Shown here: one piece after another, positions 53,847-57,657 of the stretch | How the letters are laid out: each line of letters opens with the position of its first letter | Numbering within the stretch: the first letter of the stretch is position 1 | Source: a virus | Lineage: Duplodnaviria; Caudoviricetes | Direction: 5' to 3' (one strand) | Virus record (IMG/VR): IMGVR_UViG_3300013383_000025 | Coordinates: 31,957 to 95,956 of that record | DNA length: 64,000 nucleotides | The notes under the pieces: model-generated | Seen by the model: only the letters and a program-made list of their open reading frames with translations | What the model was told of the DNA's origin: nothing | Database searches by the model: none | Made by a program: the position numbers and the translations under genes

Positions 53847-54683
53847 TTAAAAATTCATAACAGCCATAGCATTGACTGCCCTCTGCTCAGTGCGCTTGAT
53901 GTATCTGGACGTGATAGCCAAACCTGAGTGCCCCATTGCCTTACTAATTATCTCAATAGGTACGTCGGCCTCAGACATCATCGTAGCAAACGTGCGGCGC
54001 ATCGTATGATTGCTGATATGCAGCTCCTCCCAATTCTCAATACCAGCCTTCTTAGCGCACACCTTAAGCATTGCACTCGTGTTCTTACCATCCATCTTAT
54101 TGCCGCGATTGCCGACGAACAGGTATTCGCAGCCGTCTTTGCGCTCATTAGCAATATAGCTATCAATCAACTTAATTGTCTCATCAGCCAGGCCAACCAA
54201 TCTGTCCTTGTCGCCCTTGCCGCGAATAACCAACACATTACCATTGCGGCTCTGATACTGCTCAAGCGTGATGTTGGCAAGCTCGTAAATACGCAATCCG
54301 GTCTGAGCCAGCATCGTGATAATCGCCTTGTTACGCAGATTGGTTGCGGCGTTAATCATTGCTCTGACCTGTTCACCATCAAGAGCTGACTGCTCACGGT
54401 TCTTAATGCTAGGAGCTTCAAGCATATCGGCTGGATTACGGTCAATGAATTCATTGCGATACAAAAACTTGAAATATTCCCTAACCGCCGATGTGCGCTG
54501 TGCCACAGATGCAGAGCTAAGATTGCTCAAACTGGACTGCCACAGCTCAAGGTCGATCGGCTTGATTTCGGTTTCAGGCTTCTTGACATATGACAAGCAG
54601 TTCTCGACCGCCTTGATGTATTCACGAATAGTACCCTCGCTGCGATGCTTTGCTTTAAGCGACATAATAAACAGTTCGTTCAT
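53847..54683 (-). CDS. Tyrosine recombinase (XerC/D-like)
   Basis: TGLRI.EL, GKGDK.R, HTMRRTFAT, MGHS...T.RY catalytic residues. Confidence 0.92.
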   Translation of the reverse strand: MNELFIMSLKAKHRSEGTIREYIKAVENCLSYVKKPETEIKPIDLELWQSSLSNLSSASVAQRTSAVREYFKFLYRNEFIDRNPADMLEAPSIKNREQSALDGEQVRAMINAATNLRNKAIITMLAQTGLRIYELANITLEQYQSRNGNVLVIRGKGDKDRLVGLADETIKLIDSYIANERKDGCEYLFVGNRGNKMDGKNTSAMLKVCAKKAGIENWEELHISNHTMRRTFATMMSEADVPIEIISKAMGHSGLAITSRYIKRTEQRAVNAMAVMNF

Positions 54684-54716
54684 ATCGTTCAGCTCCCTGT
54701 CTCATTTGATGGTTTA

Positions 54717-54745
54717 AGTATAGCACCATAGCGGCGATTTGTCAA
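54717..54745 (-). promoter_or_regulatory. sigmaA-type promoter of the recombinase
   Basis: TTGACA-17-TATACT with extended TG. Confidence 0.78.
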
Positions 54746-54758
54746 GGGTTATTTTTAG

Positions 54759-54794
54759 AAAAATCCCTACAATCTTTCGACCATAGGGATTTTT
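54759..54794 (-). terminator. Terminator after HU
   Basis: aaaaatcccta pairs with tagggattttt. Confidence 0.7.
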
Positions 54795-54808
54795 AACAGG
54801 AGGATTAT

Positions 54809-55084
54809 TTACTCATTGATAGCCGCCTTGAATGTGCTTGTCGGCTTAAATGCCAGCGCATACTTGGCAGGGACTTCAATAGTTTCGCCGGTCTGTGGAT
54901 TACGAGCAGTTCTAGCATCGCGCAGCTTGGTCTTGAATGTGCCAAATCCATGAATCGTCACGTCCTCATGCTCAACCAGCGCATTCTTGACATAGTTGAT
55001 AAATTCATCAACAATTTCTTCTGTGTCCTTAATAGTATGCTCGGTCGAGCCAGCCACATACTTGATTAGTTCCTTCTTTGTCAT
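54809..55084 (-). CDS. hup: HU-like DNA-binding protein
   Basis: MTKKELI...GFGTF...ARTARNPQTGE.I.VPA....FKP. Confidence 0.95.
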   Translation of the reverse strand: MTKKELIKYVAGSTEHTIKDTEEIVDEFINYVKNALVEHEDVTIHGFGTFKTKLRDARTARNPQTGETIEVPAKYALAFKPTSTFKAAINE

Positions 55085-55199
55085 TGTTCCTGATAATTTC
55101 CTTTCGATTTCTAATAAAATTTTATTAAAACAAGTCGCTATGTTCATGCGCATATTGACTTGATATATAAGGTTATTGTTCCACTATCAACTACTTACA

Positions 55200-55598
55200 G
55201 GGTCCTCTTACCCAAGCCATATATTGTTTTGCGCGGAATAGGCATTCACCGTGCTATGAGTCTGCCGCCGCTCACTCTTTGTGATTACTTATTTGAATCC
55301 AGTCAACCTTGAACATTCCGGACGATTCAAGGATTTATAAATTGCCACACTCCTTACAAATTCGTTTAATTTGAATTTACAGTTGCGCAACCATCTTAAA
55401 ATCGAGAGTGTGGCGGCGTTGCCTCATAGCGTCAGGTGGTCAGTCATCAACTATTTAGCAACTGGCATTACAACCTATAAACTAGACCATCCGCAGTGAC
55501 CAAATCTTGAGGACGGCCTTACAAAGCTAGGATTTTAGGCTTTTCATCAGACGGCCATCAAATGTGCTTGCAATACTTAAACAGAGGCATGATGGACG
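55200..55598 (-). ncRNA. Candidate structured ncRNA domain
   Basis: No credible ORF; nested helices 55253-60/55423-30, 55344-52/55406-14, 55307-13/55326-32 and 55555-60/55590-95. Confidence 0.5.
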
Positions 55599-55601
55599 TT
55601 T

Positions 55602-55674
55602 TGACCGTGGTAGGATTCGAACCTACATCTCAACCGCTATGGACGGAGAGTATTACCAATTAGGAGACGCGGTC
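55602..55674 (-). tRNA. Degenerate tRNA-like element (CAT loop; pseudo-tRNA)
   Basis: GACCGCG/CACGGTC acceptor with 1 mismatch, perfect T arm GTAGG-TTCGAAT-CCTAC; D arm and anticodon stem degenerate; no CCA. Confidence 0.55.
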
Positions 55675-55679
55675 ATATG

Positions 55680-56328
55680 GAAATGGGCTTTAAGGATGAA
55701 CTCATTTCAACTCAAGCCGACTTCCTACCTCATAGCTACTTCTAGCATCGGCTCGTGAATGCTGTTTACACAATATCCTTATATCACCTTTGCCGGTATG
55801 TTTTTGCATGGATGCTACCGTGGCACGATTGAGCGCGACCCCAATTCTCTAGTCTGTATCTGCCGCTTCTCAAACTCTGCGCAGACCCCAGTGCGGGCGT
55901 GATATAGATTTGACGGTTATCTTCAAATCCGGTCGGATATTGTATCATTGTCAATCCCAATCCCTTTATTATGCCGAACAGATTGACCGGTGAGCCCCCT
56001 TAGCATGAGGCAATTACGCCATTCATGCCTATCTCATTTATCTCACACACGTTCCCGAAATGCTCTTTTTTTCATCCAATACCGACATTCCACGTAGGAC
56101 ATATGGTTAGATTGGCTTGCCTCTCGCACGAGCAGTGCTAAGGTTAATAATGGGTTCAACACCCATTGCGCTTGTGTAGTCTACACAATCTGATACGCAC
56201 GATTTCTCGCGATATCACCTTAATGATGGCTGTTCATCTCACTCCATTTACTACTGCTCCTGTATTCCCCAGCTCGGCGGTCAGCTGATACCGTCTTCTG
56301 TGGGCTTCGTAGCACCATCATCTTTACA
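55680..56328 (-). ncRNA. Candidate large ornate ncRNA (about 650 nt)
   Basis: Own promoter, no credible ORF, many local and long-range helices (see findings). Confidence 0.6.
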
Positions 56329-56334
56329 TTCTCA

Positions 56335-56363
56335 ATTATACCACATTCGATTTTATTTATCAA
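56335..56363 (-). promoter_or_regulatory. Promoter upstream of the ncRNA region
   Basis: TTGATA-17-TATAAT with TGTGG extension. Confidence 0.78.
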
Positions 56364-56529
56364 GAGGTATTTTAATTATTTTTTCAACACGTCGCTTGCC
56401 CATGCTGCACCACACACAAACATAAACAATGAATAGCCGATTCCAGCAAGGAAACAAATCCAATCGTTAAGATTCATACACTAATAATCAATAAAATTTC
56501 CTTTATTATTTACACTACAACTTACCTTA

Positions 56530-56775
56530 CTAATCTTCTTGTTCAGAATTTTCTACATTATTTAATGAAGATTTTTTAGCGAGACGTGCTGATTTGAGCC
56601 GTTCTGCCGCAGCTTGCTTCTGTTCATCGGTCATTGAGCGGGTGCGCCTTGTCTTTCCTAGGCGCAAGTCGTAAAGCGGGCAAGTCTTGATTGGACAATT
56701 CTTGACTTCCCCCGGTGAATCGCCTGAACATTGCAAGCAATATTGTCGTATTCGTTTTAGTGGAGATAGTTCCAT
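56530..56775 (-). CDS. Cys-rich hypothetical protein
   Basis: IRQYCLQCSG....EVKNC....CPLY..RLG; GAGGTG RBS. Confidence 0.65.
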   Translation of the reverse strand: MELSPLKRIRQYCLQCSGDSPGEVKNCPIKTCPLYDLRLGKTRRTRSMTDEQKQAAAERLKSARLAKKSSLNNVENSEQED

Positions 56776-56806
56776 GTTGTCACCTCGATTGGTTTGATTT
56801 TTTAGT

Positions 56807-56898
56807 TGGTCCCGCCACCAGAATTCGAATCCGGACTGCGCCCCCATCTAGGACTCAGGGTGTATAAAGCCCTCGTGCTACCATTACACTATAGCGGG
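56807..56898 (-). tRNA. tRNA-Ile(TAT) with a long variable arm, CCA encoded
   Basis: Acceptor CCCGCTA/TGGCGGG plus ACCA; D stem GTGT/GCAC; anticodon arm AGGGC-TT TAT AC-ACCCT; T arm CCGGA-TTCGAAT-TCTGG; about 22-nt variable region. Confidence 0.85.
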
Positions 56899-56995
56899 AT
56901 ATTGTCGAGCCTTTTATCGTCATGCTCAGGACTATATTTTCAGGAGGTTCACAATGCCGCAAATCAGGCTTCCCCAATTCCCTCATTGCTTCTTA

Positions 56996-57024
56996 ATTAT
57001 ACCACACGATTTGCTGTTTGTCAA
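56996..57024 (-). promoter_or_regulatory. Promoter of the tRNA transcript
   Basis: TTGACA-17-TATAAT with TGTGG. Confidence 0.82.
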
Positions 57025-57206
57025 CTACAAATTTTATTCATCTCAATAAATTTTTCACAAGCCCAGCCATTGAACACAGGTACATCGTCACAACAATATC
57101 CCCACAGACCAGTTTCTCGGTCATAGCGGTCAACGCGGCAAATATAATCGCCAATTTTGAAATAAGTATTAAGCATAATCGTTATCTCCGTTCATTTGAT
57201 AATTTG

Positions 57207-57235
57207 ATTATACCATATAGAATCGCATTTGTCAA
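57207..57235 (-). promoter_or_regulatory. sigmaA-type promoter
   Basis: TTGACA-17-TATAAT. Confidence 0.75.
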
Positions 57236-57657
57236 GCCCCTTTGACAAATTTATTTTTAATATCTACCCATTTTTTAATCTGGTCGTCTACGCGCACCCA
57301 TCCACCATAATGCAAATCTGGGTCGAACCACCATAGACCATAATAGTTCGGGTGCTCATCGTCCTCAATGGCTCGAAACGGATTGCTATAGCCATGCCAT
57401 TCAAAGAAGTCTTTAGCGAATTTTACGTCGCTATCATTAGCAACTGTAAATGCCATCACATCGTCAAATTCAGCCCATACGAAACCAGGGTCATCAAATT
57501 TGATTTCTGTGCCATCTTCCTTATAAAATCTAAGGCTGCCACCGTCACGTTTCTTCACGTCGACATACCAACACACCCATTCATGGCAATTCGCCTCATA
57601 TTCATCATCAAACTCCGCTCCACAGTATTCGCATTTATAAATCGTTGTTTCGATCAT
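57232..57657 (-). CDS. Hypothetical protein with an N-terminal C2H-type Zn finger
   Basis: YKCEYCG..F......CHE; AGGAGG RBS. Confidence 0.6.
   Translation of the reverse strand: MIETTIYKCEYCGAEFDDEYEANCHEWVCWYVDVKKRDGGSLRFYKEDGTEIKFDDPGFVWAEFDDVMAFTVANDSDVKFAKDFFEWHGYSNPFRAIEDDEHPNYYGLWWFDPDLHYGGWVRVDDQIKKWVDIKNKFVKGA

Follow-up and report, generated by a model that had tools for sequence, protein, structure and literature searches.

What does a phage genome encode in a gap that holds no gene but is faced by a strong promoter? This question is raised by positions 55154-56529 of the 64,000-nt stretch of DNA analysed here (the window), which corresponds to bases 31957-95956 of a 95,956-bp IMG/VR virus record. 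The gap lies between the gene of an HU protein (54809-55153; PF00216, E 4e-31) and a gene of 105 aa (56530-56847). All genes near it, namely those of a DnaE-type polymerase, a tyrosine recombinase (integrase, 53847-54683; PF00589, E 2e-33) and HU, are on the minus strand, as are the promoters, modules and tRNA-related elements described below. A first-pass annotation had proposed that 55680-56328 is a single large ornate RNA of about 650 nt, possibly akin to ROOL and GOLLD. Our comparison of the window with 48 related phage loci indicates that the gap is a chain of separate small folded RNAs in a tRNA island and not one giant RNA.

The lack of a credible open reading frame, on which that proposal partly relied, was borne out. 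No ORF of at least 60 aa occurs in 55154-56529 under table 11, and reading TGA as W, TAG as Q or TAA as Q only opens random-looking, stop-riddled frames; hidden coding was therefore rejected under tables 11 and 4 and with TAG=Q or TAA=Q. A 33-codon frame inside module BC (see below) was also rejected as a gene since it is poorly kept: of 15 copies, 10 have it open, 2 retain only 28 codons of it with the frame shifted, 2 have lost the start and 1 has an interruption. Another 33-codon ORF, hydrophobic and without any Pfam match, is found just upstream of the island promoter (56376-56477, minus strand), in a stretch that differs among relatives. Further upstream, the 105-aa ORF overlaps the 3' part of a tRNA-Ile(UAU) gene (56807-56898), so that its true start is probably an internal ATG near 56778. 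This tRNA gene is 92 nt long, its variable region carrying an insertion of 19 nt, and its versions in relatives measure 76 nt or 88-95 nt. Two promoters scoring 12/12 (TTGACA-17-TATAAT with TG) are located at 57235-57207 and 57024-56996 on the minus strand, the former preceding a 51-codon ORF (57021-57176) and the latter lying about 90 nt before the tRNA-Ile gene; together, the promoters in 56996-57235 look like an early-promoter cluster.

The DnaE of the phage that carries this locus has as closest relative among deposited phages that of Clostridioides phage pCD1602_4 (48%), followed by those of large Bacillus phages, and the related contigs come from human-gut metagenomes, judging from record names. 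These two features suggest that the host is probably a gut Firmicute. When the 1.5-kb region was compared by blastn with 50,697 phage records, nothing matched. The strict pattern of module F, the largest of the island, found 20 matches in viral contigs, all from the same lineage, 37 in metagenome contigs and 0 in 185,579 species genomes, and matches to the patterns of modules E and I were likewise confined to this lineage. These searches indicate that all modules are limited to one uncultured phage lineage.

The strong promoter announced by the first-pass annotation is indeed present at 56335-56363. It is of the sigma-70 type (TTGATA-17-TGgTATAAT), scores 11/12 and has an upstream TG; transcription is predicted to start near 56328. 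An alignment read by eye revealed TTGACA or TTGATA, a 17-nt spacer and TGNTATAAT in all 43 of the 43 island-bearing distinct intergenic sequences. Promoter and island are missing together in L009-L011, which represent two distinct sequences (L009, and L010 identical to L011). A few bases past the predicted start, the promoter joins module BC in most loci, module E in L005, L026 and L059, and module F in L027. This direct fusion to E or F implies that any module can be transcribed first. No terminator-like site was detected in a scan of 54500-57500, including the interval between the promoter and HU. Thirteen RNA-library runs share 8-13% of sampled words with the locus, and four of them searched at 85% likeness provide short contigs over B, BC, E, F, G, I and the start of HU, with none over D, these sequences being contigs of relatives in which RNA and DNA, strand and ends are not distinguishable.

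The organization of the island became apparent when relatives were compared. A recombinase search retrieved 26 related IMG/VR loci and a region pattern retrieved 37 metagenome loci; 49 loci with both flanking genes gave 45 distinct intergenic sequences, whose length ranges from 165 to 2234 nt. BLAST comparison with the window reveals sharp-bordered blocks, each of them present or absent independently, in a constant order. The window has, in this order, BC, D1, D2, E, F, G, a hairpin with a tRNA-shaped element, H2, I and J0. Across the relatives, the series opens with promoter B and continues with BC, D, E and F; an optional 291-nt block may separate F from G, after which come the first tRNA slot, a leader hairpin and the second tRNA slot, then H2, I, J0 and the pre-HU stretch. 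Close relatives gain, lose or swap modules singly, and segments absent from the window form 53 additional clusters. The optional block is an ORF-free segment of 291-293 nt that is located between F and G in the islands of 11 relatives (e.g. L003:6260-6550); it is absent from the window and has no Rfam match in the loci scanned.

The modules also differ from their surroundings in their conservation. At the 26 IMG/VR loci, the DNA identity with the window has its highest medians in F (95.3%) and G (94.6%), then in E (87.7%) and I (83.3%), followed by the genes of the integrase (80.9%), HU (79.5%) and the 105-aa protein (74.6%). Hence, F and G are much more conserved than the neighbouring genes (about 95% versus 75-81%).

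These data bear on the possibility that the gap serves the HU-integrase operon as a long structured 5' leader, which would act in cis and yield no free small RNAs. Such a leader would have the same orientation as HU and integrase, as the island does, and the interval from promoter to HU holds no terminator-like site. However, L009-L011 retain HU and integrase behind a spacer of 165 nt, with neither island nor promoter. Modules vary freely while the pre-HU stretch stays put, F and G are far more conserved than the HU gene that they would control, and the tRNAs embedded in the islands of relatives must be cut out, which would sever any leader. We therefore consider a cis-acting leader unlikely.

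The same comparison weighs more heavily on the initial proposal of one ornate RNA with long-range helices and perhaps self-association through a 10-nt repeat. All nine helices listed in support of it are 100% Watson-Crick complementary in the window, a single promoter stands at the 5' end and the locus is tRNA-associated, as is often the case for GOLLD and ROOL (PMC5737381). Yet the helices do not share the same fate in relatives. Those internal to a module are kept: helix 1 (closing stem of BC) in 14/14 relatives, helices 6 and 7 (P2 and P3 of F) in 39/39 and 34/34, and helix 9 (stem of G) in 41/41. In contrast, the helices that join modules are mostly lost, helix 4 (D2 with E) being kept in 0/3 relatives in which both arms could be placed, helix 5 (E with F) in 5/30 and helix 8 (F with the leader hairpin) in 5/19. 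The failing helices are exactly those that a single large RNA requires. The 10-nt repeat does occur at both positions given for it, as the 3' strand of helix P3 in F and as a junction sequence, but the latter copy is found in only 2 of the 15 aligned BC copies. Furthermore, the modules are inherited separately, alone or in other combinations, with sharp borders and with the promoter fused to E or F elsewhere, and the whole 649-nt stretch folds with an MFE z-score of -1.37 (1/20 shuffles equally stable). Its proposed 3' limit, 55680, falls just before the tRNA-shaped element, and the island continues for about 360 nt beyond it. The comparative data thus largely refute the single large RNA, which we now regard as very improbable; what stands of the proposal is a non-coding, apparently promoter-driven stretch with minus-strand RNA structure in a tRNA-associated phage locus.

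Searches for known families agree with this. A cmscan search against Rfam, including ROOL and GOLLD, assigns no family to 55680-56328. Over 3 kb, Rfam 15 at gathering score recognizes only the tRNA-Ile(UAU) gene at 56807-56898, and with E<=10, over 3 kb and 0.9 kb, the tRNA-shaped element is the sole notable match, the rest being noise. Neither ROOL (RF03087; 574 positions, cut-off 99.1 bits) nor GOLLD (RF02032; 416 positions, cut-off 150 bits) matches anywhere in the 95,956-bp genome at E<=10; the control genomes likewise have none for ROOL. The island shares with both families a tRNA-adjacent location in a phage, given the slots of relatives, the tRNA-Ile(UAU) gene and the virus record, and contains no large RNA whose multistem junctions and pseudoknots would be kept together as one unit. 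Rfam ribozymes (hammerhead, twister, pistol, hatchet, HDV-like) are not detected in the window at E<=10. At gathering score, 32 related loci contain no ribozyme either, but only tRNAs and one RAGATH-33 (RF03102), in the island of L006 (139.9 bits for a cut-off of 120.4). Therefore, the wider island includes at least one module that Rfam already lists as a small RNA in its own right. RAGATH-33 is absent from the genome of the window, where the best score is 10.8 bits, outside the island. Its name does not appear in the searchable literature or in the main text of PMC5737381, whose supplements may describe it. Several island modules fit no catalogued RNA family.

The strongest case for a folded RNA is module F (55771-55942), which spans 172 nt, comprises seven helices (P1-P7) with many invariant unpaired bases, and includes one copy of the 10-nt repeat. 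It is present once in the genome of the window and has no Rfam 15 match by cmscan, at gathering score or at E<=10. In a MAFFT alignment of 17 copies, long invariant unpaired runs separate variable stems, and RNAalifold predicts seven helices with 44 pairs in all, of which 10 show both-side changes, this alignment being model-free. A covariance model built for F gave 56 matches in 58 sources, corresponding to 47 distinct sequences. In the alignment of these 47 sequences, which was fitted to the model, 97.9% of cells are paired versus 30-45% when partners are slid by 1-3 columns, and 17 of the 44 pairs changed on both sides versus 2-5 when slid and a mean of 6.0 in shuffles (0/500 as high). Since the covariation evidence comes from few clades, and since naive screening of the F alignment lets through 178 column pairs that are not part of the structure in addition to 17 that are, it is the slide control, not the raw count, that carries the argument. 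Moreover, G-U alternates with G-C or A-U at many F pairs, which is compatible only with an RNA of the minus strand, the strand read by the promoter.

The copies of F fall into two allele classes, with about 70% and 84-98% identity to the window, suggesting exchange by recombination. A shorter paralogue, F' (143 nt, 73 bits), is found between BC and E at L019:6113-6255 and L022:5310-5452; it retains P1, P2 and P3 with compensating changes and is devoid of P6 and P7. A looser F pattern added L086 and L087, both of which were rejected by the F model. A pairing between the P2 and P5 loops is not claimed, as it relies on one A-U to C-G switch among the 178 clade-confounded pairs. The invariant loop of F, AGAGUUUGAGAA, contains the Leu codon UUG followed by a purine, and the commonest anticodon of the neighbouring tRNA is CAA. 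Since the loop is unchanged when the neighbouring tRNA changes, this match is only a lead.

Pairing was also assessed in other modules. BC (56223-56322), about 100 nt and proximal to the start, would form a closing stem and a swappable inner arm. Its 22 pairs are formed in 98.5% of cells versus 21-61% when slid, and the both-side changes (7/22 pairs) are all in the inner arm, which exists in three versions. Module I (55415-55546), a structured segment of about 132 nt, has 26 pairs with 97.2% of cells paired versus 32-48% slid, and both-side changes in 6 of the 26 pairs, in 61 cells (for cells, 0/500 shuffles). The patterns in F, BC and I thus point to genuine minus-strand RNA structure. Module G (55711-55766) is predicted to be a hairpin with a GAAR loop (R = A/G) and a purine-rich internal loop and, in relatives, sits directly 5' of the first tRNA slot; 99.4% of the cells of its 13 pairs are paired versus 14-40% slid, and 3 of the 13 pairs changed on both sides (3/500 shuffles). 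Module E (55948-56058) measures about 110 nt; its 3' half hardly varies, and its variable hairpin is swapped. The proposed fold of E is plausible, with 21 pairs, 99.4% paired versus 25-48% slid and both-side changes in only 1/21. The short leader hairpin (55676-55710), which precedes the second tRNA slot, has a stem AUGGGU/GCCCAU that is replaced by GUAGGU/GCCUAC in other relatives.

Folding energies are of little help here. The z-scores of single modules are mostly ordinary (BC -0.69, E -0.77, F -1.46, G -1.66, I +0.09) and are uninformative for most of them, the exceptions being D1 and J0. D1 (56146-56222), which holds helices 2 and 3, is predicted to fold into three hairpins and a closing stem with a cloverleaf-like outline (-27.0 kcal/mol, z -3.76, 0/200 shuffles equally stable) and is found only in the window and in one 98%-identical contig. 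The adjacent D2 (56059-56145) is common to seven relatives (L002, L062, L075, L078, L006, L020 and L081). J0 (55344-55414) would consist of a long hairpin followed by an A/U-rich tail (-29.7 kcal/mol, z -2.17) and may mark where the island transcript ends.

At the same locus, relatives carry tRNA genes for Leu (CAA), Ile, Val, Phe, Gly, Met and Thr. In the first slot, after G, Leu(CAA) is the commonest tRNA (22 islands, one of which has a Gly-UCC ahead of it); Ile(UAU) and Phe(GAA) occur there in 4 islands each, Leu(UAA) in 2 and Val(UAC) in 1. Nothing occupies this slot in 9 islands, that of the window among them, and 3 islands are without G. The second slot contains Met(CAU), Ile, Thr, Leu(UAG) or, in the window, a sub-threshold tRNA-shaped element (55602-55674) with a CAU anticodon-like loop. 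This element scores 25.2 bits against the tRNA model (RF00005; cut-off 29) and receives no ARAGORN call in the window, whose island includes no canonical tRNA. Among 18 distinct homologues of the element, ARAGORN recognizes a tRNA-Met(CAU) in 5 and a tRNA-Leu(UAG) in 1.

Several observations concern the tRNAs of relatives. Near-identical islands have, about 74 nt after G, a tRNA-Val(UAC) in L017 and a tRNA-Ile(UAU) in L007, L008 and L018, which looks like an anticodon switch in one tRNA gene. The 'tRNA-Leu(CAA)' that is common in slot 1 (L006:6397-6473) is 77 nt long; its variable loop is short and its CCA end is encoded. As the variable arm of bacterial tRNA-Leu is normally long, the amino-acid identity of this tRNA is uncertain. 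A third tRNA slot, holding a tRNA of about 91 nt (33-38 bits), is located just before HU in some relatives, at L003:7205-7295, L058:4286-4376, L080:7143-7233 and L059:1202-1292.

The sub-threshold score of the tRNA-shaped element, the only one of its kind in the island of the window, could mean that the whole island consists of recombination debris or of a tRNA array in decay, with modules as functionless leftovers. The locus is a hot spot of insertion and deletion, and the ordinary folding energies of most modules would also fit. However, debris would hardly be expected to accumulate compensating changes in register, to preserve long invariant unpaired stretches in F, or to keep F and G at about 95% identity between genes at 75-81%. 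In addition, the window keeps its promoter and BC, E, F, G and I intact despite the loss of every canonical tRNA, which argues for a function of the modules themselves. Decay thus appears quite improbable, though slightly less so than the single large RNA.

An element acting as DNA, such as an attachment site, an array of recombination cassettes or a replication origin served by the tyrosine recombinase and HU, was also envisaged, because both proteins are encoded directly downstream and the presence/absence pattern is cassette-like. The alternation of G-U wobbles fits only an RNA of one strand, however, and a consensus promoter marks the 5' edge. Besides, among representative genomes, the 3' half of the tRNA-shaped element has an exact match only at the ends of two Chloroflexi MAG contigs. 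Hence, it is not the copied end of a tRNA gene from a plausible host, and the attachment-site idea was rejected. We regard any such DNA-level role as extremely unlikely.

Taken together, these results lead us to propose that the gap is probably an accessory RNA island, i.e. a promoter-driven polycistronic precursor of small RNAs and tRNAs that resembles the tRNA cluster of T4. The host-type promoter (56363-56335, minus strand) would drive a non-coding transcript of about 1 kb, made of independently folding domains from BC to J0; in relatives, the chain holds genuine tRNA genes in two or three fixed slots. Host tRNA-processing enzymes and single-strand-specific RNases would cut the short A/U-rich linkers and the tRNA ends, releasing separate small RNAs that would act in trans during infection. 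Their likeliest field of action would be the interface between tRNAs, translation and defence that is served by phage tRNA islands. We infer transcription, inter-module cuts and any function of the island RNAs. Phage tRNAs can defeat tRNA-cleaving host defences, and this anti-defence role has renewed the study of phage tRNA islands (PMC10264068, PMC11555353); our preferred guess would accordingly place the island RNAs at the interface with tRNA-targeting defences.

A bolder reading would make F, BC and I, perhaps along with E and G, new phage RNAs specific to this lineage, which would form with the tRNAs an exchangeable cassette array, serving as a kit for counter-defence or takeover of translation. 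Some of these RNAs might then be decoys for tRNA-targeting nucleases, or might bind tRNAs. We hold this reading to be unlikely. In any case, the locus displays non-tRNA partners of phage tRNA islands as discrete units that are better conserved than the neighbouring protein genes and that come and go among near-identical gut phages. With its 172 nt, seven predicted helices and long invariant loops, F is a compact candidate for structural probing and for registration as a new family.

Two known systems are close enough to be compared with this island. GOLLD and ROOL are structured non-coding RNAs found beside tRNA genes in phages and prophages (PMC5737381), and the tRNA-adjacent phage context is common to them and to the island. 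ROOL averages 581 nt, whereas the largest unit of the island has 172 nt and the 650-nt stretch is not a unit. The tRNA cluster of T4 is expressed from one promoter as a long non-coding primary transcript that yields tRNAs and non-tRNA small stable RNAs of unknown function, and this region varies between close relatives such as T2L, RB1 and RB3 (PMC2330249). No sequence or Rfam relation was found between this cluster and the island. The island differs from the T4 cluster in that its non-tRNA modules outnumber the tRNAs and in that the host of the phage is probably a gut Firmicute. Since the island of the window is without a canonical tRNA, the analogy holds for its relatives only: in these, as in T4 with its species I and II RNAs, tRNAs and non-tRNA structured RNAs appear to be mixed on one strand behind one promoter.
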